NCBI GenBank assembly: GCA_013297875.1
Contig: JAAFIW010000002.1
Span: forward strand, 180,627-244,626
Length of the DNA stretch: 64,000 bases
Source: Comamonadaceae bacterium
Lineage (GTDB): Bacteria; Pseudomonadota; Gammaproteobacteria; Burkholderiales; Burkholderiaceae_C
Reading direction: 5' to 3'
Every line of letters begins with the position of its first letter. The stretch's first letter is position 1. Below, piece after piece: positions 9,974-47,450 of this stretch. The position numbers were made by a program, and so were the translations under genes. Under the pieces are notes generated by a model. That model searched no databases. It was not told where the DNA came from and saw nothing but the letters and a program-made list of their open reading frames with translations.

Positions 9974-10017
9974 AGCGCCTTGTTGATAATCGAAACAATT
10001 ATCTGTGAAGGATTTCC

Positions 10018-11870: not shown

Positions 11871-11897
11871 AACAGCCTAAAAAACCTAAAATCCGCC

Positions 11898-12938: not shown

Positions 12939-12961
12939 CCGGCTGGCCAAGCAAACAAGGC

Positions 12962-13046
12962 ACGTCATTCCCGCGCAGGCGGGAATCCAGGTTCGCGATG
13001 CCACTGCACGCAAGCGCTGGATTCCCGCCTGCGCGGGAATGACAGA
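12962..13046. repeat. dRS3-like inverted repeat pair (ATTCCC-N8-GGGAAT)
   Basis: gtcATTCCCGCGCAGGCGGGAATccag at 12967-12986 and ctggATTCCCGCCTGCGCGGGAATgac at 13021-13040, in inverted orientation. The ORF-track peptides containing RLRGND are translations of this repeat. Confidence 0.65.
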
Positions 13047-13049
13047 TCG

Positions 13050-29609: not shown

Positions 29610-29625
29610 TAGTTGCCACGAGTTG

Positions 29626-30288: not shown

Positions 30289-30296
30289 GGGGGGTC

Positions 30297-30920
30297 ATGC
30301 TTGGTTTTCCAGACGCTGTATTGGCATTCCCAACAGCGATATTCACCACGCTGCTGGGCGTGGCGGCGTTTTACTGGCTTTTGGCCTTGGTGGGGCTGGT
30401 CGATTTTGAGTCGGTCGACCTGCATGCCGACCCTGACATCGCCGATCCAGACGTGAGCAGCCTGGCCGGAATCATCGTGGCCTTTGGGTTACACGGCGTG
30501 CCGTTTTCCATCGTTTTCAGCCTGTTGGTGCTGCTGTCGTGGACGCTCAGTTGCCTGGGTGCCATGTGGCTGCTGGGGCTGCTTCCTGCATCCATTCCGA
30601 TCTATGTCAGTGGCTCGCTGCTGGCGCTGGCCAGCGTGTCGCTGGCCGTGCCGATTGCGGCGCGCATGGTCAAGCCGCTACGCCGTTTGTTTGTGACCCA
30701 CGCAGCCATCAGCAATGCGTCGCTGGTCGGCCAACACTGCAAGGTGCTGACCCAAACGGTAGATGAAAAGAACGGCCGGGCCGAGGTGGTACAACGGGGC
30801 GCGAATATCAACATCCGGGTGTGGGCCCGCATGCCCAACACACTGGCGCGCGGCGGCAGTGCCCGAATCGTTGCCTACGACGAGCAGACCGCCCGCTACC
30901 GCATCGAGGCCGACGGGTGA
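30297..30920 (+). CDS. NfeD/YqiJ-like membrane protein (TM helices plus C-terminal OB-fold)
   Basis: N-terminal TM region and a C-terminal ...GRAEVVQRGANINIRVWA...ARIVAYDEQTARYRIE OB-like domain. It sits directly upstream of a flotillin gene, as in yqiJ-yqiK. Confidence 0.65.
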   Translation: MLGFPDAVLAFPTAIFTTLLGVAAFYWLLALVGLVDFESVDLHADPDIADPDVSSLAGIIVAFGLHGVPFSIVFSLLVLLSWTLSCLGAMWLLGLLPASIPIYVSGSLLALASVSLAVPIAARMVKPLRRLFVTHAAISNASLVGQHCKVLTQTVDEKNGRAEVVQRGANINIRVWARMPNTLARGGSARIVAYDEQTARYRIEADG

Positions 30921-30980
30921 TGACCCACCTCAAAAATATTTACTGTTGATTTGTTGTTTCACTCGACTTGGAGTCTTTCT

Positions 30981-33020
30981 ATGGAACCCATCCTCATATC
31001 CGTCGCAGCGCTGGTCATCCTGGTTTTTGTGCTGTTTGCGATGTTCGCCAAGTTCTATCGAAAGATCGAACAGGGCCATGCGCTGATCGTCAACACCATG
31101 CGCGCCGAGCCCACTGTCACCTTCACCGGTTGCATGGTCTACCCGATCATCCACAAGGCGGAGCTGATGGAAATTTCGGTCAAAACCATCGAGATTGACC
31201 GCTCCGGCCGCGAGGGGCTCATCTGTAAAGACAATATTCGCGCCGACATCAAGGTCAAGTTTTTTGTGCGCGTGAACAAGACCGCCGAAGACGTGTTGAA
31301 AGTGGCCCAGGGCGTGGGCTGCGAACGGGCTTCGAATCAAGATGCGTTGGAAGACCTGTTTTCTGCCAAATTCTCCGAGGCGCTGAAGACCGTGGGCAAG
31401 TCGATGGAATTTGTCGACCTGTACCAGGCGCGGGACCATTTCCGCGACGAGATCATTCGCCAGATTGGCGACGACCTGTCGGGTTATGTGCTGGAAGACG
31501 CAGCCATTGACTACCTGGAGCAAACGCCGCTGTCCAAGCTGGATGGCAGCAACATCCTGGACGCCCAGGGCATCAAAAAGATCACCGAACTGACGGCCGT
31601 GGAAAGCGTGCGCACCAATGAGTTGCGCCGCAATGAAGAGATGCAGATCAAGAAGAAGAACGTTGAAACACAAGAGACGTTGCTGGAGTTGGATCGCCAG
31701 GCGGCTGATGCGCAGGCCCGCCAGAGCCGCGAAGTGGCCTCGGTGCGCGCCCGCGAAGAAGCAGAAACCGCCAAGGTGCAGGCCGAAGAGCGCACCAAGT
31801 CTGAAATGGCCCGGCTGCAGGGCGAGCAACTGGTGGCGGTGCAAAGCGAAAACTCGCAGCGCGAAAAAGAAGTGGCTGAAAACAACCGCAAGCGTGCGGT
31901 GGCGATTGAAGAAGAAAAGGTCACACGCGCCCGTGAGCTGGAAGTGGTGGACCGCGAAAAGGAAGTGGCCTTGCAAAGAATCGACAAGGAGCGTGCGCTG
32001 GAGGTGCAGAAGAAAGCCATTGCCGACGTGATCCGCGAGCGCATCGTGGTGGACCGCACTGTGGCCGAGCAGGAAGAAGCCATCAAGGAATTGCGCATGG
32101 TGTCGGACGCCGAGCGCAACAAGAAATCCATCATCATCCTGGCCGAGGGCGAGGCCGAGCAAAAAATGATCACCGAAGTGAAAGCCGCCGAAGCCCAGGA
32201 GCGCCGCGCCCGCCACAAGGCCACCGAAGACATTACCCTGGCCGATGCCCACCTGAAGGTTTCCGAGAAAAACGCCGAAGCCAAGAAACGCGACGCAGAA
32301 GGCATGGAGGCCATCGGCGCTGCGCCAGGCCTCGCTGCCGCGCGCGTCATGACCGTGACGGCCGACGCCAGACAAAAGCAGGGTATGGCCGAAGCCCAGG
32401 TCGCAGAGGCCACGGCACTGGCCGAAGCCAGCGGTATGAAGGCCAAGTTTGAAGCCGAGGCGCAAGGCAAAGAGAAACTGGGCTTGGCTGACGTGCAGGT
32501 GCGCGCTGCTGACGCCGAAGCCACCATCAAGGTCGGCGATGCCGATGCACAAACCGTGCAGGCCCGCTTCTCCGCCGAGGCCAAAGGCCTGCGCGAGAAG
32601 TTCGAAGCCATGAAAGCCATGAGCCCCGAGACACGCGACCACGAAGAGTTCCGCATGCGGCTGGAAATGCTGCACGCCGAAACCCTCAAGGGCATCGACG
32701 CGCAAATGGTCATTGCCAAAGAGCAGGCCGAGGTGCTGGGCAAAGCCTTGGCCAATGCCAAGATCGAAATGGTTGGCGGCGACGGCAGCTACTTCGACAG
32801 TTTCGTCAAGGCACTGGCCGTGGGCAAAGGCATAGACGGCGCGATTGCCAAGAGCGACACGCTGAAAATCGCGTTGAAAGACCACTTGAATGGCGATCGC
32901 AACATAGTTGACGACGTGGGCCGCCTGGTGGGCGCTTTAGGCGATTCATCGGGTGAGCTGAAGGATCTGGCGATTGCGTCCCTGCTGTCCAAGACCGGCA
33001 AAGATGGCAAAGCCCTGTGA
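30981..33020 (+). CDS. Flotillin-family SPFH/band-7 protein (YqiK-like)
   Basis: ATG at 30981 with GGAG 8 nt upstream. N-terminal TM, then an SPFH domain, then a long Glu/Ala/Arg/Lys-rich coiled coil and a C-terminal flotillin tail. Total 680 aa. Confidence 0.85.
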   Translation: MEPILISVAALVILVFVLFAMFAKFYRKIEQGHALIVNTMRAEPTVTFTGCMVYPIIHKAELMEISVKTIEIDRSGREGLICKDNIRADIKVKFFVRVNKTAEDVLKVAQGVGCERASNQDALEDLFSAKFSEALKTVGKSMEFVDLYQARDHFRDEIIRQIGDDLSGYVLEDAAIDYLEQTPLSKLDGSNILDAQGIKKITELTAVESVRTNELRRNEEMQIKKKNVETQETLLELDRQAADAQARQSREVASVRAREEAETAKVQAEERTKSEMARLQGEQLVAVQSENSQREKEVAENNRKRAVAIEEEKVTRARELEVVDREKEVALQRIDKERALEVQKKAIADVIRERIVVDRTVAEQEEAIKELRMVSDAERNKKSIIILAEGEAEQKMITEVKAAEAQERRARHKATEDITLADAHLKVSEKNAEAKKRDAEGMEAIGAAPGLAAARVMTVTADARQKQGMAEAQVAEATALAEASGMKAKFEAEAQGKEKLGLADVQVRAADAEATIKVGDADAQTVQARFSAEAKGLREKFEAMKAMSPETRDHEEFRMRLEMLHAETLKGIDAQMVIAKEQAEVLGKALANAKIEMVGGDGSYFDSFVKALAVGKGIDGAIAKSDTLKIALKDHLNGDRNIVDDVGRLVGALGDSSGELKDLAIASLLSKTGKDGKAL

Positions 33021-33029
33021 TGCTGTGCC

Positions 33030-36000
33030 ATGGAATCTGCTGACATCGACCCCGCACCGGCTGAGCAAACCGAAAGCCTGGTCGCCGCAAGCGGCAGCTA
33101 CGAGCTGCTGAAAAAACGCCTGACGGCCCACGGCCTGGCGCTGCGCGACAAGGCGCAGGCGCTGAACGCGGCGCGCGTGGCGCAGTTTGGCAAGTCTGAA
33201 CAGTCGCTGGTGCTGCGCACCCGTGCCCGCACGCAAAACAACTGCGTGGCGCGCGACATCGTGCGCATTGGTGACCAGCTTTTGTTTGGCTACAACGTCT
33301 TCATTGGCCTGCGCAAAGAAACCAGCGTGGGCGATGTGTTTGGCTTGTACCGGCTGGCCGCGCATGCCGGTGAGCCCGAGCTGGAAGCCTTGCCGTTGGC
33401 GGGCAGCTTTCTGGAAGACGCCCGTTTTGCGTCTGACTTCAAGGAGCTGTACGCTTACTACAAGCAAGCGCAGTTGCTGCAGTTGCGCGTCACGCAGGGC
33501 AAGCTGCTGGCGTCGTTTCAGATCGGCCAGCAGGTGCAGGATGTGCGGGTGTTTCGCTGGCAATTGGCAGCCGATGGTGCGCCCCAGTACATCGACAACC
33601 GGGGTGAGCGCGACATGGCGCTGCCCCCCAGCCATGACTTTGAATGGATACCCACCACGCGAGCCGACCACGCCGAGGGCCGCCACCCGCACATCAGCAT
33701 TCTGGACACGGTGTTTGTGGAAACGGTGGGCGGCGACCTGACCGTCAAGATCGAGAACAACACCGAAACCGGCCTGGGCATCTACAGCGAGCCGGTGGAC
33801 GACAAGAACCAGTCGCTGACCGATGCCGAGGTGGCCTACGCCAAGCTGGGCCAGTTGATCCTGCTGCGCATACGGCCGTATCGCGAGCAAACCACGCGCT
33901 ACCTGGTGTTCAACGAGCGCACGCAGCAGGTCACGCGCATCGACGCGCTAGGTCTGTCGTGCGTGCAGTTGCCCGAAGACCATGGCATTGTGTTTCCCGG
34001 TGGCTACTACCTGCAGTCGGGCGAGTTCAAGCACTTTGACCTGCCCGCTGACGTGGGCAGCAGCCTGCGCTTCAAACGCATGCTGCGCTCGCCCAACGGT
34101 GAGGACGTGTTGTATTTGTTCTACCAGCCGGGCAGCGGCCACTATGCGCTTTTCACCTACAACCTGATCGACAAGACGCTGGCTGCGCCCATCGTGGCCA
34201 ATGGCTATGCGCTGTACCCCGATGGCAAGGTGCTGGTGTTTCAGGTGGGGCCGGGCGAGCCCACACGCGTGCACCCCATGCAGCTGTGGCAAACCGCGTT
34301 TTCCAGTGAAGAACACGCCGGTACTGCCGCGCTGGGCACCGGCTTCTTTGGCCGCATTGGTAATGCCGAATTGGTGCGAGGTGTGGCCGACCTGATGGGC
34401 ATTGCCCGCGCTGTGCAAGAGCAGGCACCCACCCGCGCTGCCTACGACGACCTGATACGCCAGTGCGCCCGCGTGACCGATGCCTATTTCTGGCTGGCCG
34501 ACCCCGAGGCCGGCGCGGCCTTATCTGACCTGCAACGCATCAGCGAGGCCGCACGCACCACGCTGGCCGAGTTTGAAAAGGTCGAGCAAATCCGCCGCGA
34601 GACCGCACGTGCACTCGACGAGGCGCAGACCAAGCAGAAAACGCTGATGGTCGATATCGCCAGCACACTGTGGCGCAAACCGGAAGACTTCATCCACGCG
34701 CTGGGTCGCCTGCGTGAGCGCCGCGGCAACCTGGAAACGCTGAAAGAGCTGCGCTACACCGATTTGCCCCGCATTGAGGCAATGCAAACCGAGCTGGAAG
34801 CCGAGCAGCAGCGTGTGGGCGAGCGGGCCATGGTCTTTTTGGCTGATGAACAGGCGTTTGCCAGCCACCGCCAAAACCTCACCAAGCTCGGCACCGACCT
34901 GGCACAAGCATCTACCAGCCCTGGCCTGCAAATCATTCTGGATAGCCTGGACGAAACCGCCGCTGGGCTGGACTTGCTGACCGAGCAACTGGGCGGCCTG
35001 CCCGGTGGCGATGCGGTGCAGCGCACCACCATTCTGGAGCGCATCTCGGCGCTGTACACCGACATCAACCGCCTGCGCGCCGATGCCCGAAGCCGCCGCA
35101 AGGCGCTGGGCTCGCACGAGGCTGCGGCAGAGTTTCTGGCCCAGTTCAAGCTGTTTGGCCAGGCGGTGGAAAACGCGCTGGACTTTGCCGATAGCCCCGA
35201 AAAATGTGACGAGGCACTCACCCGCCTGCTAGCCCAACTGGAGGAACTGGAAGGCCGCTTTGCCGAGCAGGAAAATTTCCTGGCCGACATTGCCACCAAG
35301 CGCGAGGCTGTTTATGAAGCGCTAACCGCCCGCAAACAAACGCTCACGCAAGCACGCCAGCAGCGCGTGCAAGGCCTGGTGACGGCGGCCGGCCGCATTC
35401 TGGACGGCACGCAACGCCGTGTGGCGCAACTGAGCAAGCTGGAAGAGGTGCACAGCTACTTTGCCGCCGACATGTTGATCAGCAAGCTGCGCAAGCTGGT
35501 GGCCGACATGCGCGCGCTGGGTGCGCAAGTGGCAGCCGACGACATCGAGACCCGGCTCAAAACCAGCCGCGACCAGGCCCTGCGCGGCGTGCGCGACCAG
35601 GCCGAGCTGGTGACCGAGGGCGGCAACAACCTGCGCCTGGGCAAGCATGTGTTCACCATCAGCCGGCATCCGCTGGAGCTGACACTGGTGCCCCACAGCG
35701 ACGGCCTGGCCTACCACCTGACCGGCACCGACTACCTGGTGCCCGTGAACGACCCCGCACTGCAGGCCTACAAGCCGTATTGGCAACAAGCCCTGCCGTC
35801 TGAAACCGCCGCCATCAGCCGCGCCGAATACCTGGCCGGTTGCCTGCTGGACGCATCGCTACAAGGCAGCACGCCACTGCCCTGGGCACGCATGACAGAG
35901 CTGGTCGCGCTGGGGCCAGAAGGCCATGCGGCGCTGCTGGATCAGGTGCGGCAATTTGCCGCCGAGCGTTACCAGGACGGCTACGACAAAGGCGTGCACG

Positions 36001-38216
36001 ACGAAGACGCCACACGCATCTTTGGCGCGCTGGCGGCGATGCAAGACGCAGCCGGTCTGCTGGCCTGGGGCCCGACCGAACGCGCACTGGCCCTGCTGTT
36101 CTGGCACGATGGCCGCAGTGGCAGCGAACGCGAGTCGCTGCAGCGCCGCGCCCGCTCGGCGCTGCAGGTGCAGCAGCTGTTTGGCGCACGTGACAGCCTG
36201 GCGTCGCTGGAGCGGGAATGTGCCCAGGCCCTGGCGGTGTTTGCCCAGGCCGTGGGCTTTGAACTGGAAGGGGCTGCTGATGCCGAGCGCATGGCATCGC
36301 TATGCGCGCAGGCCGCCGCCTATCTGGTGCGCGAAGTGGCCCACGAGGGCGGCGCTGAAACCTGGGTCATCAGCGGCGCGGGTGAAGACCTGGCTGCCGC
36401 CCTGCGGCGCGAGCTGGAGCGCGGTGGCCAATGGGCCAGCTGGCAGCGCAGCCTGGAGGCGTCGACTCCCACCGAGCGCTGGCAGCAGGCGCGCAGCTGG
36501 GTCAAGGCCTTTGCCGGCAAGCAAGACGCGTCTACCCATGACTGGGTCGACGATGCGGCCGGCCTGCTAGCCGTTCCGGTCAAACGCAAGCGCGTGAATG
36601 CCTCGCTGGACGCGACGGTAGAAGGCCTGCGCGGCGAACACACGCGGGTGGACAACAGCCGCATGGCCTTGAACCTGAACGATTTCTGGCGGCGCTTCAG
36701 CTTTCACCGCGACCGCGTGGTGCCCGGCTTCCAGGCGCTGCAAAAGTTGCACCACAGCCTACTCGCCACTGAGAAAACCCGGCTCAGCCTGGCGCAGTTT
36801 CAGGCCAAGCCCTTGCCCAGCTTTGTGCGCAACCGCCTGATTGATGAGGTGTATTTGCCGCTGATTGGCGACAACCTGGCCAAGCAGCTGGGCACCACCG
36901 GCGCAGGCAGCCGCACCGACCGCATGGGCCTGCTGCTGCTGATCTCGCCGCCTGGTTATGGCAAGACCACGCTGATGGAATACGTGGCTGACCGCTTGGG
37001 CCTGGTGTTTGTGCGCATCAACTGCCCGGCGCTGGGCCACGACGTGACCGCGCTGGACCCTGTGTCGGCCGCCAACAGCGCCGCGCGCCAGGAGCTGGAA
37101 AAGCTCAACCTGGGCCTGGCCATGGGCAGCAATGTGATGCTGTACCTGGACGACATCCAGCACACCAGCCCGGAGTTTCTGCAAAAGTTCATCGGCCTGG
37201 CCGACGGCACCCGCCGCATCGAGGGTATGTGGCAGGGCCAGGCCCGCAGCTACGACATGCGTGGCAAGCGCTTTGCGATTGCCATGGCCGGCAACCCCTA
37301 CACCGAGTCGGGCGATGTGTTCAAGATCCCCGACATGCTGGCCAACCGGGCCGACATTTACAACCTGGGCGATGTGCTGGCTGGGCGCGAGGCCTTGTTT
37401 GCGCTGTCGTACATCGAAAACAGCCTGACCAGCAACCCGGCGCTGGCACCGCTGTCGTCGCGCGACCCGCGTGATGTGCAATTGCTGGTGCGCCTGGCGC
37501 AGGGCGAAGACGTGGCCAGCGGCGACTTTGCCCATGCCTACAGCAGCGCCGAGCTGGAGGAGTTGACGGCCTTGCTCAAGCGCCTGTTCCGCGCCCGCGA
37601 CCTGTTGCTCAAAGTCAACCTGGCCTACATTGAGTCTGCCGCTCAGCGCGACAGCTACCGCACCGAGCCGCCCTTCAAGTTGCAGGGCAGCTACCGCAAC
37701 ATGAGCAAGCTGGCCGCCAAGATCACGCCGCTGATGCACGACGACGAGCTGAACGCGCTGCTGCGCGACCACTACCGCGGCGAGGCACAAACGCTGACCA
37801 CCGGCGCGCAAGAAAACCTGCTGAAGCTGGCGCAGCTGATGGGCGCCGCCACCGACGAAGAGAACGCACGCTGGAAAGCCATTTGTGATGAATTCGTGCG
37901 CCAGCGCAAGGCCGGTGGGCAAGACGCCGATGGCACCACCCGCATCGCCAACGCCCTGATGGACGTGAGCCGCGCGGTCGATGAACTCAAACCCGACGGG
38001 CAAGCCCCCGACAGCGAAGGCAAACGAATGGCCGAAGCCGTGCTGCAACTGGCCGTGACCTACCGCACGGTCATCATGCCGCTGATCGCTGCCACCGAAA
38101 AACGCATGGACGTGGACCACAACATCAGCAAGCGGCTGGAGCTGCTCTTGGCCCAGGCTGACGAGATCCGGTCTTCGCGCCCACGGCAGCCCAAAAATAC
38201 GGACGGTTCAGCGTGA
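33030..38216 (+). CDS. 1728-aa protein with a C-terminal MoxR/AAA_5-like P-loop ATPase domain and a very long helical N-terminal region. Function unknown.
   Basis: Single uninterrupted ORF. Walker A LLLISPPGYGKTTLMEYV at about aa 1290, Walker B NVMLYLDDIQH, and the sensor-like RFAIAMAGNPYTE (ATMNP-type). The remaining ~1250 aa are coiled-coil-like with no motif I can name. It sits 9 nt after the flotillin gene and is translationally coupled to the PLD gene downstream. Confidence 0.7.
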   Translation: MESADIDPAPAEQTESLVAASGSYELLKKRLTAHGLALRDKAQALNAARVAQFGKSEQSLVLRTRARTQNNCVARDIVRIGDQLLFGYNVFIGLRKETSVGDVFGLYRLAAHAGEPELEALPLAGSFLEDARFASDFKELYAYYKQAQLLQLRVTQGKLLASFQIGQQVQDVRVFRWQLAADGAPQYIDNRGERDMALPPSHDFEWIPTTRADHAEGRHPHISILDTVFVETVGGDLTVKIENNTETGLGIYSEPVDDKNQSLTDAEVAYAKLGQLILLRIRPYREQTTRYLVFNERTQQVTRIDALGLSCVQLPEDHGIVFPGGYYLQSGEFKHFDLPADVGSSLRFKRMLRSPNGEDVLYLFYQPGSGHYALFTYNLIDKTLAAPIVANGYALYPDGKVLVFQVGPGEPTRVHPMQLWQTAFSSEEHAGTAALGTGFFGRIGNAELVRGVADLMGIARAVQEQAPTRAAYDDLIRQCARVTDAYFWLADPEAGAALSDLQRISEAARTTLAEFEKVEQIRRETARALDEAQTKQKTLMVDIASTLWRKPEDFIHALGRLRERRGNLETLKELRYTDLPRIEAMQTELEAEQQRVGERAMVFLADEQAFASHRQNLTKLGTDLAQASTSPGLQIILDSLDETAAGLDLLTEQLGGLPGGDAVQRTTILERISALYTDINRLRADARSRRKALGSHEAAAEFLAQFKLFGQAVENALDFADSPEKCDEALTRLLAQLEELEGRFAEQENFLADIATKREAVYEALTARKQTLTQARQQRVQGLVTAAGRILDGTQRRVAQLSKLEEVHSYFAADMLISKLRKLVADMRALGAQVAADDIETRLKTSRDQALRGVRDQAELVTEGGNNLRLGKHVFTISRHPLELTLVPHSDGLAYHLTGTDYLVPVNDPALQAYKPYWQQALPSETAAISRAEYLAGCLLDASLQGSTPLPWARMTELVALGPEGHAALLDQVRQFAAERYQDGYDKGVHDEDATRIFGALAAMQDAAGLLAWGPTERALALLFWHDGRSGSERESLQRRARSALQVQQLFGARDSLASLERECAQALAVFAQAVGFELEGAADAERMASLCAQAAAYLVREVAHEGGAETWVISGAGEDLAAALRRELERGGQWASWQRSLEASTPTERWQQARSWVKAFAGKQDASTHDWVDDAAGLLAVPVKRKRVNASLDATVEGLRGEHTRVDNSRMALNLNDFWRRFSFHRDRVVPGFQALQKLHHSLLATEKTRLSLAQFQAKPLPSFVRNRLIDEVYLPLIGDNLAKQLGTTGAGSRTDRMGLLLLISPPGYGKTTLMEYVADRLGLVFVRINCPALGHDVTALDPVSAANSAARQELEKLNLGLAMGSNVMLYLDDIQHTSPEFLQKFIGLADGTRRIEGMWQGQARSYDMRGKRFAIAMAGNPYTESGDVFKIPDMLANRADIYNLGDVLAGREALFALSYIENSLTSNPALAPLSSRDPRDVQLLVRLAQGEDVASGDFAHAYSSAELEELTALLKRLFRARDLLLKVNLAYIESAAQRDSYRTEPPFKLQGSYRNMSKLAAKITPLMHDDELNALLRDHYRGEAQTLTTGAQENLLKLAQLMGAATDEENARWKAICDEFVRQRKAGGQDADGTTRIANALMDVSRAVDELKPDGQAPDSEGKRMAEAVLQLAVTYRTVIMPLIAATEKRMDVDHNISKRLELLLAQADEIRSSRPRQPKNTDGSA

Positions 38217-38920
38217 CGACCAACGCCGAAGCCATGCAAGACCTGCTGGATCAACTGGAAAGCTCTCTGGCCGACCTACGCCTGGACGACGCTGAAAAGC
38301 ACAGCCTGGCCCACACCCTGCGCCAGGCCCAACCGCCAGAAGACGGCTTCAGGCAACTGCGCAACCACGCCTTCGCGCTGGCCCGCAACCGCCTGGCTGC
38401 GCAACAAGACCCCATGGATGTGCTGCGCTGGCTGGAAGCCGTGGTGCGCGCGCTGGACGTGGCCCGTGCCCCGGCGCAGGCCATTCGCTCCAGCGCCCAC
38501 TTCAGCCCCGGAGAAGCCTGCCTGAACACCATCGTTCACCACTTGCGCAGCGCCCGTCGAACGGTCGATTTGTGCGTCTTCACGGTGTCCGATGACCGCA
38601 TCGCTCAAGAGGTGCTGGCCGCCCACGCACGTGGCGTGGCGCTGCGCTTCATCACCGACAACGACAAGGAAACCGATTCCGGCAGCGACGTGACCCGCTT
38701 GCGCGCAGCCGGTGTGCCCACGGTGGTTGACCGCACCGACGCCCACATGCACCACAAGTTTGCAATCTTTGATGGGCAGTGGTTGCTCAACGGCAGCTAC
38801 AACTGGACGCGCAGTGCTTGTACGCACAATGAAGAGAATCTGGTGGCGACGAATGACGCAACGTTGGTGCGGCAGTTTCAGGGGGCGTTTGATCAGTTGT
38901 GGGGGCAATTGGGCGATTGA
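38213..38920 (+). CDS. Phospholipase-D-superfamily (HKD) nuclease-like protein
   Basis: GTG at 38213 overlaps the upstream stop (GTGA). An alternative ATG lies at 38234. Single HKD motif HMHHKFAIFDGQWLLNGSYNWTRSA (HxK...D...GSxN). About 235 aa, typical of Nuc-like endonucleases. Confidence 0.8.
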   Translation: MTTNAEAMQDLLDQLESSLADLRLDDAEKHSLAHTLRQAQPPEDGFRQLRNHAFALARNRLAAQQDPMDVLRWLEAVVRALDVARAPAQAIRSSAHFSPGEACLNTIVHHLRSARRTVDLCVFTVSDDRIAQEVLAAHARGVALRFITDNDKETDSGSDVTRLRAAGVPTVVDRTDAHMHHKFAIFDGQWLLNGSYNWTRSACTHNEENLVATNDATLVRQFQGAFDQLWGQLGD

Positions 38921-38950: not shown

Positions 38951-39029
38951 GCAGAGTTTGGGTCAGTGGCCCCCACCTGAAACTGTCAAAGGGCCAGAAA
39001 TCGGCGGGAACCACTGCCCCAAACTCTGC
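38951..39029. other. 19-bp inverted repeat (1 mismatch) around a 41-nt loop, immediately 3' of the PLD gene and at the left edge of the low-GC island
   Basis: gcagagtttgggtcagtgg at 38951-38969 and ccactgccccaaactctgc at 39011-39029. No U-tract follows, so it is either an atypical terminator or a recombination/boundary structure. Confidence 0.4.
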
Positions 39030-39309
39030 GGATGGAGTTGATGGGGCGCGCAATGGATTTTGAATCGCCTGAGACGGCAGATCCGGTGCGCTTGCAGTCG
39101 GTCACCCGGAAATCGAGATTAGGCGGTCTGAGCCATAAGCGACGAAAGCTGTACGTCCGCTTTGGGCAAGTTGCAGTCTTCCGTCAGTGACTGCTTTCAG
39201 GTTGCATGCTCAGGGATTGCACCTCTTAGCTTGGGCGGGAGATTCGTGCAGAGCATCCTAAATGGTTCACCTGTCGAAGTGCTAGTATGGCCAACCAAGG
39301 GAGTCAGAC

Positions 39310-40725
39310 ATGCCAGCACTTGAACGAAAGCTTATTGACAATCTCAAAGAACGTCTTATCAAGCATCTGGAATCTACGGGTGGCTATGAGTCCATTGATT
39401 TCATCGATGCGGGGGGGTCAGCGGCAATATTTAAGGTTCGAAGAAGTGATGGACTTAGGGCCGTCAAGATTTTCAATCCTGACCTATTTTCTGGAGCACC
39501 AGCCGCAGCAAGCAAGCGGCGCCTTGACGTCCAGCGGCGGCTAATTGATCACAAGTGCCCCAGCCTCATCCAGACTTATTTTGCCGATGAGTCGGACGGT
39601 ACAGCGATTGTTGAAATGGAATTCAACGAATGGCCGCAACTTTCGAGGCAACTTGGCAAAGTCCCAGATGACGCCATTGGCCGGCTTATGGACCAACTGG
39701 TAGACGCGGTCAAATATCTTGAAAGCATGAATATTGTTCATCGGGACATTAAGCCAGAGAACATACATGTATCTGCAAACTTCCAAGAGCTGAAGTTACT
39801 TGATTTAGGCGTTGCTAGAGAGTTCGACCACTCTGACGAGAGCGACGCCGGAATGACCGACTCGGGCGTTGGCCGACCCTTCCTTGCTACTGCGCAATAC
39901 AGCTCGCCGGAATATCTATTCCGATTAGATGAGCCCACCGATAAATTATGGAAGGGCTTGAACTTTTATCAAGTTGGCGCAGTTCTTCACGACCTCATTA
40001 AGAAAGAGGCGTTGTTCCAACATGAAATTCTGCTAGAGAATCGCTGGCTAGTCGCTCGGGCGGTTCTCACGAAGCAACCCAGCTTCTCCGACAGTGACAC
40101 GAAGCGCCTCGCAGCAGAAAAGGCGCTAGCGCTTCGCTGTTTGACCAAAGACCTCGACACACGTTTGTCTTTGGTTGGCTGGGAGGAGTTCCAATTCAAC
40201 ACGATCGATGACCCACTAACTGCGCTGAAGACCAAGTTGTCGAAAGGATTAGGACATTTAGGAGAAGTTTCCAAATCAACTTCCGCTGCCCGACTCAAAT
40301 ACGAACGACATGAGTACTGCACTCGAATATTTGAGAGGGTTCGAACCGAGCTAATAGCAGTTTGCGGCACGGAATTGCCAGTAACAATGATTACCGACTA
40401 CTCTGGCGATCCCATGAATATCGGGTTTGCCGTCAGTCCAGAAAAGTCAATTCTCGTCCGTATCGAATGCGACGTCTCTTGGAACGCTGGAATCTATGAA
40501 AAATCAGCGCTGATGGAGGTTGGAGCCATGTTTCTTCCAACTTCATCCAAAGCCCGATATGCGGAAACCCCGATGAAGGCCTGCTTAGAGATGAGCGTTG
40601 GTGCCGCCGAGGACGAAACGGTAACGTCTATCGCGAATAGTATTGCCAAACTGATAGGACTTGCACTTTCGCGCATTGAAGCAACGGGCGGAGATCCAAG
40701 GACGCTTCAGGGAATTTCGGTTTAA
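39310..40725 (+). CDS. Hanks-type Ser/Thr protein kinase domain protein with a ~220-aa C-terminal domain that has no recognisable motifs
   Basis: Gly-rich loop DAGGSAAIFKV, the VAIK-type Lys in RAVKIF, catalytic loop IVHRDIKPENIHV, LLDLGVARE (DFG-equivalent) and YSSPEYL (APE). Low GC. Confidence 0.8.
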   Translation: MPALERKLIDNLKERLIKHLESTGGYESIDFIDAGGSAAIFKVRRSDGLRAVKIFNPDLFSGAPAAASKRRLDVQRRLIDHKCPSLIQTYFADESDGTAIVEMEFNEWPQLSRQLGKVPDDAIGRLMDQLVDAVKYLESMNIVHRDIKPENIHVSANFQELKLLDLGVAREFDHSDESDAGMTDSGVGRPFLATAQYSSPEYLFRLDEPTDKLWKGLNFYQVGAVLHDLIKKEALFQHEILLENRWLVARAVLTKQPSFSDSDTKRLAAEKALALRCLTKDLDTRLSLVGWEEFQFNTIDDPLTALKTKLSKGLGHLGEVSKSTSAARLKYERHEYCTRIFERVRTELIAVCGTELPVTMITDYSGDPMNIGFAVSPEKSILVRIECDVSWNAGIYEKSALMEVGAMFLPTSSKARYAETPMKACLEMSVGAAEDETVTSIANSIAKLIGLALSRIEATGGDPRTLQGISV

Positions 40726-40742
40726 ACAAACGGAGGTGGCAG

Positions 40743-41903
40743 ATGAAATCGAGCTGGTGGCGAAAAAAGAACGAACTGGTCCCGGAGCAAATTAACTTTA
40801 TTAATCTGCCGCCTCAGGGGCGCTATTCGCTGGTGGGCCCGCCGGGCTCTGGCAAGACCAACCTATTGCTGCTGCGGGCCCAGTTCCTGGCTGGTAACGG
40901 CGAAAAGAACGTCCTAATCATTACCTATACCAATTCACTCTGTGACTTCATCCGCTCTGGGATTGGAAAAACGGGTCATATTCTCGCTCGTCAAGTGATG
41001 ACCTACCACTCTTGGGCGGGAAATCACATCATCGACCAACTAGGCGTCAGCAAAAAGCCCAAGGGGAGCGCCTTTGACGATGAAACCCGTGCCGAAATTC
41101 TTGAGAGGCTGAAGGAAGCAAATTCGAAGCGCCCCTCAGAGAAGATGTACAGCGCGATTTTTGTCGACGAGGCTCAGGACCTGTCGGCGAATGAACTGGA
41201 GCAGCTACTCTGTCTGAGTGACAAAATCTGTATTTGTGGTGATGACAAACAGGGCATCTTCTATCAGGACGGATTGTCCGTTGCGGAGAAACTGAAGCTC
41301 GAGAAGCATGAGCTCACAAGCCACTTCCGCATCGGTCAGCGAATAGCGGAGGTAGCAGATAGATTGGTTCCTCCTCCTGCAGGAGAGACAGGTCTTGCCG
41401 CTCGAGCGAACTACAATGAGAAGCTCCAAGGCAAGTCCACTGCTGAGCTACATCCAAGGGATAGCCGTGACGAGCAGTTTGCCAAGATGGCAGAGCTGAT
41501 TCGTGTGCAACTAGTGGCTTTCATTGATGACAATATTGGCGTCTTTGCTGGAACCAATGAGGCTATCGCGGAACTGAAGGAGCGATTCGACGCAACTGAA
41601 CTTTCTGGCCTTGTTGCATACCACGGTCAGGAAGGGGGCGGTTCATTTTCGTCGGATTCACGAATTCATGTGATGACTCTCCATAACTCAAAGGGTACGG
41701 AGTTCCGAGCCGTCCACATTTTCGCTGCGGAAGAGCTTCATGGGTTTCCACTTCGCCGAACCAAGTTGGCCTATACAGGTATCACCCGAGCCCGTACTGC
41801 ATTGAATGTGTTCCGAACAGGCCCCACAAGTGTAGGCCTCGAGAATGCCTTCGCGAAACCGTCGCTCATGGACATGGATGCCCTCTTTGAGGAGGATGCA
41901 TGA
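40743..41903 (+). CDS. Minimal UvrD/Rep-like superfamily-1 helicase (about 386 aa, core motifs only)
   Basis: Motif I GPPGSGKT, Ia IITYTNS, II FVDEAQD, III CGDDKQGIFYQ, V MTLHNSKGTEFRAVHIF and VI YTGITRAR. GGAGG Shine-Dalgarno. The stop overlaps the next ATG (ATGA). Confidence 0.85.
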   Translation: MKSSWWRKKNELVPEQINFINLPPQGRYSLVGPPGSGKTNLLLLRAQFLAGNGEKNVLIITYTNSLCDFIRSGIGKTGHILARQVMTYHSWAGNHIIDQLGVSKKPKGSAFDDETRAEILERLKEANSKRPSEKMYSAIFVDEAQDLSANELEQLLCLSDKICICGDDKQGIFYQDGLSVAEKLKLEKHELTSHFRIGQRIAEVADRLVPPPAGETGLAARANYNEKLQGKSTAELHPRDSRDEQFAKMAELIRVQLVAFIDDNIGVFAGTNEAIAELKERFDATELSGLVAYHGQEGGGSFSSDSRIHVMTLHNSKGTEFRAVHIFAAEELHGFPLRRTKLAYTGITRARTALNVFRTGPTSVGLENAFAKPSLMDMDALFEEDA

Positions 41904-43378
41904 ACGAAGTGATTCGATGGTTTGCAATCGGTAAAGAGGATTTACTGGATGTGCTCCTCGGCGAAGCATCGCCGAGCGGGCAATCCTCCAGCGTTCCGCC
42001 GCTGCCTGACCTTCGGGCCGGGAAACTCGCGCTTGGGTACAGGGCGGACGACTGCGTGGCGATGTCCCCAATGTGTGGGCCCGCGCTAGTGATCGTTGAG
42101 GACGACTCCGCCACAGAAACAATGTCGTGGCTACGCGCGTTCGCCGACGAAGCGTTTCCCATGAGTCAGTTTGCGCGAATAGTGAAACTCAGTGACTGGG
42201 TCATGTTCTCGTCAATGCGGAAGAACTTCAGCCAGGTTGGAGATTTCTACCCGGAGAGGTGGGCTTCGGTTTCGGTTGGTGAAGTGATGGCACAGGCCGA
42301 GTCGGATGTCGATTTGCAGAACATGCCGCTGTCCCGCTTGGCAAGTTCACTAACTTTGCCAGTTGGACGAGCCTCCCATCTTTTTGACAGCGGCGACGCG
42401 ACCCAGCAATGTGTGGATAGACTTCGGATCGTTTCGAGCGATGCGAGGTTCGTTCATAGACCCATAACCGTTTCTCAACTCACTCCTATCTGGGCTCTAT
42501 GCAGCGCCAGGATTGGGGGCCATCTTGAGGCGCAAGAGTCAGCTCAAATGGTGGTCAAGGCGGCAAGCGGATACTTTCGCGACCAAGCGGACCTAATGCC
42601 ACCAGAAGACGGTCTCTTCCTTGAGCGCTATGTGGGTCTCCAAAGCGATTCCGCGGAGGAGCGCGTCATGGCGTTCAATGAGTTCTCTCGCGATGTTCTC
42701 AAGTTCCCAGCCTCGCAGTTAGCGTCGTCGGGTGCGCCCCTGCTCGCTGCAGCCGCCTTCATGGTGGGGCGCAGCACATCTCATGTGTTCCTGTTGAATC
42801 ACTTTCGTAGAGCAGCACCCGTGGCGTTTGCTTGGTTTGGCCTGATAGCTGCCCTCGCAGGCTCACGCTGCTGGGATGGCGAATGGCTGCGGGCAGTCAA
42901 GGGTGCGGAGCGCCTTCTCAAGCCTCGGTTCGAATGGACCGACACCTCACCAGCAGACATTGGATGGCCTGAGTTCGCATGGCTCGCCAGCTTGCGCGAC
43001 GATGTCTACCAGTTGGTAGAACTGCCTAAGATGCTGCCGCGTACTCTCGGGGTCGAGGTCGTGCCCGGTGTTGTACTACAGGTTCGCCTTGGACAGGGAA
43101 GCGGAGGCGATGAGATGCACGCTGTTCGTGTGACCTCTGCGAGGGAGCATGAATTGGCGGATGCACTCAACCAAATCCTGGAAGTTGCACTAAAGGTCCG
43201 AGGACATGAAGTGCGAAGCAATGCCCCTGAACGTGGCCGCTACGCCGGGCGTGGCCGCCAATCTCAACAGTCTTTCGACCTAGATCAACAGTCTTTCGAC
43301 CTAGAGGACCGCCCAACCGGCATCACAGGTAAAACATCTAGTGGGAAAAAGGGTAAGCGCGACATAGAGAGCCCCTGA
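41900..43378 (+). CDS. Hypothetical protein (492 aa), translationally coupled to the helicase, no recognisable domain
   Basis: Clean ORF with a GAGGAGG Shine-Dalgarno. GC content is intermediate between the island and the host. C-terminal Arg/Gly/Gln-rich tail with the short tandem QQSFDLDQQSFDLE. Confidence 0.6.
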   Translation: MNEVIRWFAIGKEDLLDVLLGEASPSGQSSSVPPLPDLRAGKLALGYRADDCVAMSPMCGPALVIVEDDSATETMSWLRAFADEAFPMSQFARIVKLSDWVMFSSMRKNFSQVGDFYPERWASVSVGEVMAQAESDVDLQNMPLSRLASSLTLPVGRASHLFDSGDATQQCVDRLRIVSSDARFVHRPITVSQLTPIWALCSARIGGHLEAQESAQMVVKAASGYFRDQADLMPPEDGLFLERYVGLQSDSAEERVMAFNEFSRDVLKFPASQLASSGAPLLAAAAFMVGRSTSHVFLLNHFRRAAPVAFAWFGLIAALAGSRCWDGEWLRAVKGAERLLKPRFEWTDTSPADIGWPEFAWLASLRDDVYQLVELPKMLPRTLGVEVVPGVVLQVRLGQGSGGDEMHAVRVTSAREHELADALNQILEVALKVRGHEVRSNAPERGRYAGRGRQSQQSFDLDQQSFDLEDRPTGITGKTSSGKKGKRDIESP

Positions 43379-43614
43379 ACTTAGCGCTAGCAAGGTGCCG
43401 AGCACGACCGCTGGGGCCTTTCATCAAGACAGCGGCAATCTACCTAGGCGCCTAACGGAGAAAGCTGACTAGTCTGAAGTCATATTGCGTGTGTCAGCGT
43501 CGATCAGCAAAACGCCTTTTGTTGTGTCTCTGCTTGGCGGGCACTAATGGCCTTTGTTGTCATGTAACTCGGGTAAAAAGACGTGGTGAGTTACGAATTC
43601 CGTGGAGGCTCCTT

Positions 43615-45369
43615 ATGATTGACCTAGCCAAGTTGTTTTTCGAGAAAGTTCCGAAGTTTTTTTTCGATCACTTGCCTCGCCGCAGCGGCATCTCGCGACT
43701 TGAGAAAATCGCATTTGAATGCGACGCACTAGCGACTGCACTAGAGCTGCAAGGCGCACCTTTTCCAGTTTCACGATTGAAGCTGCAACTGAGTCGGTTT
43801 CGAAATCAGCCACCCGAGAAGATCGAAGAAGAAAATATTGACGAAATTGTGGAGGATATCGAGGATAGATTGATAGATCTAGATAACCTCTCTGCTCAGA
43901 CCGAGAGCCCGCGGAGTACATTTCTTGAGCAACAAAAGACGGCAAAGGAATTAAGGGCGATAGCGCTTAGGCTTCGCAACACTCGCACTAAAAAGCAGAT
44001 TGTCCGGCGGGCGTTCGGGATCACAGCAGCGGTTACGGTTGTTGGCTTTGCACTATTTGGCGGCTCCAGACTATTAGAGTCTTGGAAATCGTGGAAGCGC
44101 TCTTCGAGAGCAAGAACCGAATTTGTCAAAGCCAATGTAAAGAGGATGGACGGACCGTACACCATTGATACTTGGGATAGCGGGCTTGCGCCTTCAGCAA
44201 ATTGGAGAGTTGTCGACAGGGAGTTCAAGCTTATTCGATTCAACCCAGAGTTCCCGGCGGCTCCGCGTGAGCCTGGGGAACGGATCGCCAATGTGGAATC
44301 AACAGTTGCAAGGCTTAGCGCTTTTCTTGCCCAAAAGCCTCCGCCTCCCGCTGTAATCATTAAAGGTCGACTAGGAGAAGGGATGGGATACGTCCCGGCG
44401 CACCTCTTTTCCAGGCTGCTTGAAAATGCATTAAACGCAGACAACTTTGACGCATCATTTGCCGGATACAAACGCTGGGTGTTTACTGTTGATCAGACCC
44501 AGCTACAGCACTTTAGCGATGCCACAAAATATCCAGTGGACGATTTTCGAAAGTTCCTCCTAGATAAGGCAAAAAAGCATCTTCTGCCAGAGACACTTAC
44601 GGATGAAGCGATATTCGAAAATTCTATTATTATTTTTAACAACACGCCGACTTTGGCACTGGCAAAGCTGCTGCCTATCTTAATAGCCGCCGCCGAAGAG
44701 TGGTTCGCCACTATGGTCGTCTCTATACCAATTCAAGGCCTGACTGGACTAAATTCCCTCTCGCTTCAGAAAGGCATTCAACTCGAGCTTTTGGCGTACA
44801 AGGACGACGTGCAAACTCTAAGTAATCTGGCAACGGTATCGCTGACTCATTATTTAAACAGTAGGAAAACGCTGGCCAGAGACAGTGGCCACATTCAAAA
44901 GGCTGCAGCGGTCATGCTTTCCGACCCTTTCGCACCGCACATGCTTGCGAACTGGCGAATATCCAGACACTACATTCGAGCGCGATTCGAAGGAGTGACT
45001 GACCTTGCCTCAATGAAACCGCTTTCTCCTGTCGATAGCACCGCAGTTGCCTCTACTGCCGTTAAGGCAGCCCTTGATGCCTATGTCAATAGCTGGCTGG
45101 GAGAACTTAGTAATAAATCCCCTCTCATTCAGTTTAGCAGGCTCACAACACTTATCAGGGATGCTCTATTGCGTTCCGGCTCGAATCAGCCCTTTACTGA
45201 TACCGATTGCTACGAGTTAATCATCGCATCAGGTATCGTTGAACGAGGATCAGTTGAAATCGAAAATGTGCGACTAGTCATCAAGGGATCTCCATTCTTC
45301 AAGTCGGATTCGAACGGTGAAATGACTTGGTTGCCATTTACCCCCAACGTTAGCCAAATAATCTCGTAG
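43615..45369 (+). CDS. Hypothetical membrane-anchored protein (585 aa). Acidic and coiled N-terminal region, one predicted TM helix, large C-terminal domain.
   Basis: ATG at 43615 with GGAGG 7 nt upstream. The ORF track extends it to 43489. Acidic stretch EKIEEENIDEIVEDIEDRLIDLDNL, hydrophobic segment AFGITAAVTVVGFALFGG. Low GC. Confidence 0.55.
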   Translation: MIDLAKLFFEKVPKFFFDHLPRRSGISRLEKIAFECDALATALELQGAPFPVSRLKLQLSRFRNQPPEKIEEENIDEIVEDIEDRLIDLDNLSAQTESPRSTFLEQQKTAKELRAIALRLRNTRTKKQIVRRAFGITAAVTVVGFALFGGSRLLESWKSWKRSSRARTEFVKANVKRMDGPYTIDTWDSGLAPSANWRVVDREFKLIRFNPEFPAAPREPGERIANVESTVARLSAFLAQKPPPPAVIIKGRLGEGMGYVPAHLFSRLLENALNADNFDASFAGYKRWVFTVDQTQLQHFSDATKYPVDDFRKFLLDKAKKHLLPETLTDEAIFENSIIIFNNTPTLALAKLLPILIAAAEEWFATMVVSIPIQGLTGLNSLSLQKGIQLELLAYKDDVQTLSNLATVSLTHYLNSRKTLARDSGHIQKAAAVMLSDPFAPHMLANWRISRHYIRARFEGVTDLASMKPLSPVDSTAVASTAVKAALDAYVNSWLGELSNKSPLIQFSRLTTLIRDALLRSGSNQPFTDTDCYELIIASGIVERGSVEIENVRLVIKGSPFFKSDSNGEMTWLPFTPNVSQIIS

Positions 45370-45490
45370 AGACTGTAATGGCTGCAGCGGCTGCAACGAC
45401 GCTGGAACGAGCGCGCGTGCGCGTCAAACAACTTCTTCTGCCCTTGGATGGGATACGCCACCAGCCAGAAAGCCCGGCTCGCGCACAGCT

Positions 45491-45760
45491 TTAAATGCGC
45501 GACCCCCACGTTGTACAACACGCCGCCCACAACATCGCCTCGTCGCTCCAGTCAAACTGGAACGCCTCGCCCAGCTCAAAGCTCAAGGGCACGAAGGCCT
45601 TGGCAGGCCTGCGTCCGAGCGCGTACGCCACGAGCGGATGAAGTCCGTGACCGCGCTGTAGCCACCGCGGTAAACCTGCGTCTAGATCTATAGTCCGCTC
45701 GACTTCGCTGCACAGGTTGTTTAAGAGGCCGCTCTTGGAAAGCGAAATTGACGTGCGCAA
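45491..45760 (-). pseudogene. IS21-family transposase (IstA) remnant
   Basis: ...KAFVPLSFELGEAFQFDWSDEAMLW matches the IstA region around the first catalytic Asp (compare E. coli IS21 ...RFETQPGYQLQHDWGE...). It is truncated immediately afterwards. Confidence 0.45.
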
Positions 45761-46277: not shown

Positions 46278-47450
46278 ATGAACATCTTGTCAATCGCCAA
46301 CGGCCAGCTCTGGCACACCCAAGGCTCGGCGCCCGCCAACCAACTGCAATCGCAGTTCGCCAAGGAACTGATCGAGCGCGAAGCCCAGAGCCGCCGCACC
46401 ACCGGCTGGAAGCATGCCGAGCGTGAGGGTCAATCCGGCATGCTTTCCGGCTCGCAGCTGTGGGGCCGAGGCGGCGGTAGTGGCGAGCTGGCACCGCCGC
46501 GCTATTTGTATGCCTGCACCGGTGCCGACCCGCAAACCCTGTACTACACCTTGAGCGTGGCCCGCAGCGTGGGCCTGTTTCGCTACCACGTGGGCGAGCA
46601 GCGCGAGGTGCGGCTGTTTCACCGCAACAAGGTGCCGGTGCTGGGCATGGCGTTTGACCCGCGCGCCAACCGCATCATTTTGGCTAACGGTAACGACGAT
46701 GGCACGGCCCAGCTGGATGTGTATGACGACGAAGGCAACCACAAAGGATCGATCACCGGTGGCGACTGCGTGGACGCCGCGCCCGCGATGATTCCGGCGC
46801 TGGCCTCCACCCTCATTTACCAGTCGTGCGGTGTGGCGCGTCACCCGCAAACCGGCCAGGTGGTGGCCATGGGCCACAGCACCATCAACCGCTTGAACTA
46901 CGCCAACGGCCAGCTCGACACCATTCTGGAAGACCCGGCCTACGACTTTGTGGCCCCCAAAGCTGGTGTCGACGGCACGCTGTACGCCATTCGCCGCCCG
47001 GTCGAAAAACCGGTGCAAGAGCAGGCGGGCAGCGCCATTAAAGACACCTTGCTGCTGCCCTTTCGCCTGGGCAAAGCCATCTTTGGCTACCTGAACTTCT
47101 TCTCGATGATCTACGGCAAAGAACCCTTGCGCTCCGCCGGCGGCCCCCGCACCCCTGAGCTGGACCAAGACCTGGGCAAGCTGTGGCTGCACGGCCGAAT
47201 GATCGAGCTGTCCAAAATCAAACTCGATGCGCAATACAACGGCAGCCTGGTGCCTGCGTCGTGGGAGCTGGTCTGCCTGCCGCCCAACAGCTCGGCGATG
47301 CAGGTGCTGGCGTCACATGTGGCCAGTTTTGATGTGACGGCCGATGGCACCGTGGTCTACACCAATGGCTATGACTTGACCGCGCTGCGCGGAGGAACTG
47401 CGCAGAAGCTGGGGCGGCACGAGTTGGTGGAAGGCGTAGCAGTGGGGTGA
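46278..47450 (+). CDS. Hypothetical protein (390 aa, host-like high GC)
   Basis: Clean ATG with a Shine-Dalgarno. No recognisable motif. Before the island insertion it would have sat immediately downstream of the PLD gene. Confidence 0.6.
   Translation: MNILSIANGQLWHTQGSAPANQLQSQFAKELIEREAQSRRTTGWKHAEREGQSGMLSGSQLWGRGGGSGELAPPRYLYACTGADPQTLYYTLSVARSVGLFRYHVGEQREVRLFHRNKVPVLGMAFDPRANRIILANGNDDGTAQLDVYDDEGNHKGSITGGDCVDAAPAMIPALASTLIYQSCGVARHPQTGQVVAMGHSTINRLNYANGQLDTILEDPAYDFVAPKAGVDGTLYAIRRPVEKPVQEQAGSAIKDTLLLPFRLGKAIFGYLNFFSMIYGKEPLRSAGGPRTPELDQDLGKLWLHGRMIELSKIKLDAQYNGSLVPASWELVCLPPNSSAMQVLASHVASFDVTADGTVVYTNGYDLTALRGGTAQKLGRHELVEGVAVG

Follow-up and report, generated by a model that had tools for sequence, protein, structure and literature searches.

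The described immune systems closest in design to the locus reported here are type I Mokosh and DarHTG. In type I Mokosh, MkoA joins a serine/threonine kinase (STK) domain to a superfamily 1 (SF1) helicase of the COG1112/Upf1-like type, and MkoB is a PLD nuclease (bioRxiv 10.1101/2022.05.11.491447). DarHTG (Liu-DS3), which protects against T4 and T7, consists of DarH, a UvrD-family helicase without a 2B domain, together with DarT and DarG3, the last resembling ADP-ribosylglycohydrolases (ARH) (PMC13069673). Residues of the helicase that bind ATP are needed for defence both in Mokosh (bioRxiv 10.1101/2022.05.11.491447) and in DarHTG (PMC13069673). For Hachiman, the helicase is described as the sensor and the partner protein as an effector nuclease. 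We set these systems beside a locus in a 64,000-nucleotide (nt) stretch of a Comamonadaceae bacterium (assembly GCA_013297875.1, contig JAAFIW010000002.1, positions 180,627 to 244,626), referred to below as the window, in which three linked genes encode a Hanks-type kinase, a minimal UvrD-like helicase and a protein that we call P3; the next gene downstream encodes a protein that we call P4. The kinase-helicase-P3 triad belongs to none of the known systems with which it was compared. It matches no system in PADLOC-DB 2.0.0, the literature searched yielded no description of a system built from a kinase, a minimal UvrD-like helicase and P3, and as far as these two sources show it is unnamed, as a preliminary description of the locus had supposed.

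With type I Mokosh the triad shares a Hanks kinase module, an SF1 helicase and what would be a separate hydrolytic effector, found in defence islands; it differs in encoding kinase and helicase by two genes, in having a minimal helicase of the UvrD type and in having a third protein that is not a PLD enzyme. The MkoA model matches the kinase core only (positions 107-228 of 1112), and the helicase matches models of the UvrD/GajB type instead. A PLD gene upstream of the triad was considered as a Mokosh-like partner and rejected: it is absent at every other cassette locus and is coupled to a DUF3686 ATPase gene instead. DarHTG is alike by description, having three genes, a 2B-less UvrD-like helicase and a protein that resembles an ADP-ribosylglycohydrolase; the DarT (DUF4433) of DarTG and DarHTG is missing from the triad. 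Gabija and Hachiman pair a helicase (in Gabija the UvrD-like GajB) with an effector encoded by the adjacent gene, and GajB models match the triad helicase (expectation value, E, 5e-17). Here the differences are that the triad has neither a GajA (ATPase-TOPRIM) nor a HamA (DUF1837) partner, that the GajB matches are partial and that there is an extra kinase gene. No GajA-like gene lies around the triad in the window, and its neighbours give no GajA match.

A Hanks kinase domain is likewise shared with the single-gene defences PD-T4-6 and Stk2, the MADS kinase MAD6 and PglW of BREX/Pgl. Stk2 is a kinase defence that phosphorylates host or phage proteins. The similarity to these systems is limited to the kinase domain, whereas the triad kinase has a C-terminal domain of its own. 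Its PADLOC matches (PD-T4-6, E 1.9e-22; mad6, E 7.5e-20; MkoA, E 2.5e-10; and C3a189) reflect the generic kinase core only: the PD-T4-6 profile is matched solely at positions 8-259 of 292, and the 840-position C3a189 'kinase' model over the core of the triad kinase alone. Matches to the NCBIfam models of MAD6 and PglW fall far below their cut-offs, and in the loci examined the kinase never occurs without the helicase and P3. For the helicase, the best PADLOC match is C3a187 'NERD+UvrD' (E 2.5e-22, nearly full length). We take C3a187 and C3a189 to be type III CRISPR accessory gene families; the triad differs from them in having no NERD domain and no CRISPR-cas genes nearby. Two further candidates were discarded, the DNA-damage system CapK/CapS (PMC13373217), which is irrelevant as its kinase is of the GHKL type, and DS-6 of DefensePredictor, whose HipA-type kinase does not match. 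A protein-language-model survey of defence genes holds no matching system, and a survey of nicotinamide adenine dinucleotide (NAD) and ADP-ribose signalling (PMC9503650) describes no such triad.

The three genes form a conserved unit. In a scan of one genome per species (185,579 species), kinase, helicase and P3 genes followed one another in this order at all 20 species-level loci with enough upstream DNA (tblastn), and the same order was found in seven of seven distinct further contigs that span the genes. We inspected seven neighbourhoods, those of Methylomonas, Chromobacterium, Limnobacter, Pseudothauera, a metagenomic contig, Citrobacter portucalensis and the closest metagenomic relative. 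Each encodes a kinase of ~470 amino acids (aa), a helicase of ~385 aa and P3 in the same order, among flanking genes that are unrelated between loci, and the 4-nt overlap of the helicase and P3 genes seen in the window recurs in five of the seven other loci with called genes. Synteny persists down to 25% P3 identity in Luteolibacter. The order is the same at every locus examined, and the arrangement is far beyond chance. The two closest copies, loci L038 and L007, match the window at nucleotide level over positions 39191-43366 (89% identity) and 39300-43382 (85%), respectively. Since the similarity is limited to 39191-43382, the mobile unit, as delimited by nucleotide comparison, is the three genes with a leader of ~120 nt, and P4 lies outside it. 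A simple scan of the leader found no sigma-70 consensus promoter.

Diverged triads are carried by plasmids of Rhizobium leguminosarum (NZ_CP016292; locus L036, 5586-9515) and Cupriavidus (NZ_AP025174; locus L037, 5588-9522). Their kinases are 34% and their helicases ~30% identical to those of the window, and the helicase gene follows that of a 470-aa kinase and precedes that of a P3-like protein of 419-457 aa. The Rhizobium and Cupriavidus third proteins are 36% identical to each other. Alignment of the Rhizobium protein with the P3 profile is colinear and reaches an hhalign E of 0.0036, but with a probability of 9%, and its relationship to P3 is tentative. As both plasmid proteins retain the invariant residues of the P3 family (see below), the family seems to comprise at least two clades. 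The third gene of L037 is annotated as encoding 242 aa; the actual open reading frame (ORF) encodes 457 aa and overlaps the stop of the helicase gene.

The preliminary description had treated the kinase, helicase, P3 and P4 genes as one four-gene system with a membrane-anchored component. All four were found on the + strand with strong Shine-Dalgarno-like sequences ahead of their starts (AAGGGAG, GGAGGTGG, GAGGAGG and GGAGG), and the reported 17-nt gap between kinase and helicase and ATGA overlap of helicase and P3 are present; the last gap, given as 237 nt, is 236 nt, and P4, given as 585 aa, has 584 from ATG 43615. P4 does have the acidic N-terminal region ascribed to it, with a net charge of -9 over residues 60-100, and one hydrophobic helix at residues ~134-152, which is predicted to span the membrane. 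If it were a component, for example a membrane effector, its place 236 nt downstream on the same strand, its good ribosome-binding site and its position in the same low-GC tract (GC, fraction of G and C) would fit, yet we regard the chance of this as close to negligible. P4, which is identical to database protein P0095, has no match in Pfam, NCBIfam, PADLOC or PHROGs, and a search of 5.8 billion proteins returned no homologue outside its own strain (self-matches only, L005/L006). It is absent from all 31 other cassette loci (L001-L004, L007-L010, L012-L035; tblastn), and it lies beyond the DNA shared with L038 and L007, which ends at 43366-43382. These three points (orphan status, absence elsewhere and position) rule P4 out as a system component; moreover, genes downstream of other triads are similar neither to P4 nor to one another. 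Judged from these comparisons, P4 is a strain-specific orphan in the same low-GC island, unrelated cargo and not a part of the cassette. Of the expectation that all four families would co-occur elsewhere, the part concerning kinase, helicase and P3 holds strictly, whereas P4 never accompanies them; nor do the upstream PLD and DUF3686 ATPase genes or a downstream 390-aa gene co-occur with the triad at other loci (tblastn). The open frame of P4 is far too long to arise by chance in DNA of 50% GC.

The kinase (Pfam Pkinase, E 8e-23, residues 29-288) has the Hanks-type Ser/Thr catalytic motifs first noted in it: the beta3 lysine (K53), the HRDxKxxN loop (HRDIKPEN, 144-151), a DFG-type Mg loop (DLG, 165-167) and an APE-type motif (SPE, 199-201). 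The helix-C glutamate does not appear to be conserved at its expected position (alignment A2). The C-terminal domain, initially put at ~220 aa, is shorter than that (Table 1) and diverges at about double the rate of the kinase domain (mean identity over 56 homologues, 0.36 against 0.68). It has no match in Pfam or PHROGs, and a profile search of PDB sequences gave nothing meaningful; in a fold search with the whole-kinase model, kinase matches dominated and were uninformative on this domain.

The helicase belongs to the SF1 UvrD/Rep-like group, with Pfam UvrD-helicase, AAA_19 and UvrD_C_2 all above their cut-offs. Every SF1 motif is present and in order: Q, I (GPPGSGKT), Ia (TYTN), II (DEAQD), III (GDDKQ), IV (HFR), V (HNSKGTEF) and VI (TRAR). 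Of the 350 positions of the UvrD_C profile only 280-345 are matched, and just 78 residues separate motifs Ia and II; because of this partial coverage and spacing, most of 1B and 2B would be absent and the protein would largely be a minimal 1A+2A core. The preliminary description had read it in the same way, as a complete motif set in 386 aa without these accessory domains, and length and profile coverage bear this out. The helicase is the best-conserved gene of the triad, with 50-68% identity where P3 has 30-49%.

P3 has no match in Pfam, NCBIfam, PADLOC or PHROGs, and a profile search against PDB sequences gave nothing meaningful. At the level of sequence it is thus without recognisable motifs, as had been stated; that statement does not carry over to the family, which is conserved, has a confidently predicted fold and shares a set of invariant acidic and histidine residues. 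A word-indexed search found 94 homologues, and a profile search combined with full HMMER at E<=1e-3 gave 752 clusters at 50% identity, the listed members being almost all 460-490 aa long; three of 2.9 million IMG/VR contigs carry P3. AlphaFold2, given an alignment of 65 sequences, predicts its structure with confidence (predicted local distance difference test, pLDDT, 82; predicted template modelling score, pTM, 0.79). In an alignment of 23 sequences, which reaches down to 15% identity and includes the plasmid clade, the invariant residues are P87, E128, E253, H295, D353, E358, E386 and P389, and every member ends in a tail rich in Lys and Arg. The set of four Glu, one Asp and one His would suit a metal-dependent active site. 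A Foldseek search with the model ranked ARH1 first, at a level that is not significant (E 0.046), and the resemblance to ARH is weak but consistent. The Pfam model of ADP-ribosylglycohydrolases (ARH/DraG, PF03747) is unmatched by P3. Because the Foldseek match is not significant and the PDB profile search was empty, we keep the ARH-like fold of the predicted model as a lead and not as a classification. P3 is probably a metal-dependent enzyme and, by analogy with the systems above, the effector of the triad. Its tail contains, in this strain only, an extra seven residues (QQSFDLD) that arise from a perfect tandem duplication (Table 1) and are absent in all homologues of alignment A1.

The likeness to DarHTG raises the possibility of ADP-ribosylation chemistry. 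P3 would then join an ADP-ribosyltransferase (ART)-like N-terminal domain to an ARH-like domain that reverses the modification, the helicase would make single-stranded DNA available for modification, and whether writing or erasing prevails would depend on the kinase. Several observations make this distinctly unlikely. Neither DUF4433 nor any other ART family of Pfam is matched even at E 0.1, and such ART matches as appear are short and low-scoring. The N-terminal domain of P3 has only ~100 aa. A candidate R-S-E-like ART site in that domain lost force in the 23-sequence alignment, where distant homologues have G, K or Q in place of R93 and P87 is the sole invariant residue of the domain; as R93 is not invariant, the idea of a fused transferase is weakened. 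ARH enzymes have two metal-binding motifs far apart in sequence, and these could not be mapped onto P3.

Low GC, 85-89% nucleotide identity in unrelated contexts, and an IS21 (insertion sequence) remnant with a duplicated PLD fragment at the right edge together indicate, on comparative grounds, that the cassette is horizontally acquired and moves as a unit among unrelated sites, plasmids and integrative elements. The claim that the segment is AT-rich and acquired thereby stands. GC is 0.47-0.60 over ~39.2-46.2 kb, against 0.61-0.67 on both sides, rising above 0.62 again from ~46.2 kb; over the four genes (39310-45369) it is 0.47-0.58, with flanks at about 0.62-0.67. In 23 of 23 loci the GC of the triad is below that of the locus. 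Elements adjoining triads include integrases, IS66, resolvases, transposases and an integrative conjugative element. In Citrobacter portucalensis the homologous triad (L010, 8001-11978) has a GC of 35%, with an integrase of the P4 type upstream and EcoRII downstream. Methylomonas flanks contain a TIR gene, an SbcCD-like pair, IS66 and a SMEK-domain protein; those of Pseudothauera contain a 1323-aa reverse transcriptase, a caspase, HigB and Trb genes. The Rhizobium plasmid copy adjoins a Hachiman-like pair (DUF1837 and a DEAD helicase) split by IS481.

From the 6 kb on either side of the triad at 23 loci we pooled 127 ORFs upstream and 123 downstream. Defence genes had been expected near homologues, and they are frequent in this pool, in a qualitative sense. 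Very strong PADLOC matches upstream are to QatA/B/C, PD-Lambda-5 A/B, RT_UG17, a type II methyltransferase, mad3/mad8 and RmrA; downstream they are to Drt1a, GajA+GajB, PycC+PycTIR of Pycsar, Dsr1 and caspase (two ORFs each), LmuB, E2, DpdH and a type II restriction endonuclease. The pool contains no recurrent fourth family. With no Pfam family present more than three times, no hidden fourth partner of the triad is indicated.

Such mobility would also suit a toxin-antitoxin or addiction cargo that stabilizes its carrier elements, or takes part in competition between elements, and that does not act against phages. Triads occur on conjugative and other plasmids and beside integrases, transposases and an element with three recombinases; HigB and HTH-peptidase_M78 modules adjoin some of them, and the three genes are tightly coupled. 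We nevertheless think this reading unlikely. The carrier elements differ at every locus, so that the triad is not the core machinery of any one of them, and many of its neighbours are dedicated anti-phage systems. Addiction and defence by abortive infection are, moreover, not mutually exclusive.

On balance, and somewhat more confidently than an even chance would warrant, we favour the reading that the triad is an unnamed anti-phage or anti-mobile-element defence system in which, by analogy, a helicase-sensor, a kinase and an effector divide the labour. Its support comes from the strict co-occurrence of the three genes, their mobility, the frequent defence neighbours, the intact kinase and helicase motifs, the P3 invariants and the translational coupling of helicase and P3. 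In this proposed defence system the helicase would be an ATP-driven sensor or motor that engages foreign DNA or replication intermediates, in analogy to Gabija, Hachiman, type I Mokosh and DarHTG. P3, whose synthesis the ATGA overlap would couple to that of the helicase, would act as the effector, possibly as a metal-dependent hydrolase with an ARH-like all-alpha fold whose basic tail probably binds nucleic acid. The kinase could be an activating switch that phosphorylates the helicase-P3 pair or, like Stk2, a second effector of broad specificity acting on host or phage proteins; its fast-evolving C-terminal domain is a plausible module for sensing phages or binding a partner.

Several points weigh against defence as the function. 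The family is rare: triad loci were found in 24 of the 185,579 species genomes. Most of these belong to Beta- and Gammaproteobacteria; three are Verrucomicrobiota, and one is a metagenome-assembled genome labelled Bacillota. The Citrobacter cassette DNA has no match in 5,426 complete E. coli genomes, and at E<=1e-5 P3 was found in neither the plasmid nor the phage collections. As P3 has no PADLOC match, its membership in 'defence' derives from context only. That context is itself qualitative, because the ORFs were pooled, not counted per locus, and have no background rate beside them, and the flanks of many loci, that of Limnobacter among them, are plain housekeeping genes by their Pfam families. 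Finally, it is by analogy alone that the three proteins are cast as sensor, transducer and effector.

A housekeeping module for DNA damage or stress, with the kinase regulating a repair helicase and without any part in genetic conflict, strikes us as highly improbable. UvrD-like helicases and Hanks kinases do both act in repair and stress signalling, and the Limnobacter copy adjoins uvrA-ssb. Against this stand the sporadic distribution over those 24 species genomes, the atypical GC in every host, a position that differs from genome to genome, carriage on plasmids and next to integrases, and the fast divergence of P3 and of the kinase C-terminal domain.

New candidate defence operons turn up often. 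Should the triad protect against phages, in keeping with the favoured defence reading, it would be a so far unnamed system whose parts form a new combination: a Hanks kinase encoded by its own gene, a minimal UvrD helicase and an enzyme family that is new. Two questions could then be approached in a tractable system, namely what part kinases play in bacterial immunity, as switch or as weapon, and why stripped-down SF1 helicases are recruited again and again to unrelated effectors, as in Gabija, DarHTG and Mokosh. Assigning a chemistry to P3 would annotate a whole family of at least 752 clusters with a clear candidate active site. The Citrobacter portucalensis homologue, with its low GC and its place in a hotspot for integrases of the P4 type, would make testing in E. 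coli straightforward. A bolder form of the proposal, which we consider rather unlikely, makes the triad an immune system of a new class: a Hanks kinase would control an ARH-like, metal-dependent P3 riding on a minimal helicase, and would so tie protein phosphorylation to ADP-ribose/NAD-type or nucleic-acid chemistry on invading DNA. If this were true, P3 would be the founding member of a new enzyme family, and the variable C-terminal domain of the kinase would be a phage sensor of a new kind.

Table 1. Features of the triad, its proteins and the adjoining parts of the window.
Feature	Position	Strand	Remarks
Leader/promoter region moving with the cassette	39191-39309	+	Similarity to L038 starts 119 nt before the kinase start
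Kinase (gene 1)	39310-40725	+	471-aa ORF
Kinase domain	residues ~20-295 of gene 1
Kinase C-terminal domain, ~175 aa	residues 296-471	 	Long helix, five-stranded antiparallel sheet, helix
Helicase (gene 2)	40743-41903	+	386-aa ORF
P3 (gene 3)	41900-43378	+	492-aa ORF
P3 predicted layout			Small N-terminal alpha/beta domain (~100 aa); all-alpha domain ~105-375; beta-hairpin 382-397; long helix; disordered basic tail
Perfect tandem duplication of 21 nt, disordered P3 tail	43264-43305	+	QQSFDLD/QQSFDLE
P4 (gene 4)	43615-45369 (first start of the ORF GTG 43489)	+	584 aa from ATG 43615
IS21-family istA transposase remnant	~45440-45650 (approximate)	-	tblastn against plasmids
Isolated 93-nt copy of the PLD HKD-motif segment	46023-46115	+	88% identical to 38718-38810
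Two small proteins without family	within operon 29623-38920	+
Flotillin-like protein, 689 aa, weak match	30951-33020	+
DUF3686/DUF7902/AAA ATPase, 1728 aa	33030-38216	+
PLD nuclease, 235 aa	38213-38920	+	4-nt overlap with the DUF3686 ATPase gene

Apart from the island, the window is ordinary high-GC proteobacterial chromosome, with genes for acyl-CoA dehydrogenases, aminopeptidase N, FBPase, TctC, AcrB, tRNA-Leu, trigger factor and ClpP, and its annotation has no phage genes near the cassette. At the right edge of the island, the istA remnant is 90% identical over ~50 aa to the istA of a Variovorax plasmid (147 matching records, tblastn against plasmids), and Pfam gives no match to it. The isolated PLD segment, which the PLD protein finds by tblastn at E 3e-15, is flanked on either side by sequence unrelated to the PLD gene. 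With the corresponding segment of the intact gene (38718-38810) it forms direct repeats that enclose a 7.3-kb low-GC insert comprising the triad, P4 and IS21 debris, an arrangement that suggests that a PLD gene was the site of an insertion, rearrangement or recombination, an event beyond reconstruction. Immediately to the right of the island lies the 390-aa ORF (46278-47450), which has the GC of the host and no match in Pfam, NCBIfam, PADLOC or PHROGs.

Between the PLD stop and the leader, a 27-nt inverted repeat (38951-39029; 85% complementary, 25-nt loop) was not called by a terminator scan; it may represent either a terminator or an extragenic repetitive element. At locus L038, three tandem genes resembling tyrosine recombinases (691, 518 and 429 aa; 8912-13822, - strand) lie directly downstream of the triad and recall a 'recombinase in trio' element. 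Three otherwise unrelated loci have in common a gene pair just upstream of the triad, in either orientation (L038, 2011-3875; L002, 75-1785; L037, 1813-3524), that encodes a protein of ~200-220 aa without family and an HTH_3/Peptidase_M78 (ImmA/IrrE-like) protein, in L037 annotated as an XRE regulator only. This HTH_3/Peptidase_M78 protein may be a regulator that accompanies the triad at times. Upstream of the island in the window, the flotillin-like, DUF3686 ATPase and PLD genes belong with two small genes to an apparent separate operon on the + strand (29623-38920) with 4-nt gene overlaps. The literature search found no mention of DUF3686, and the PADLOC matches of this operon are weak only, of the LmuB, MkoB and DrmC types; it may be another conflict system.

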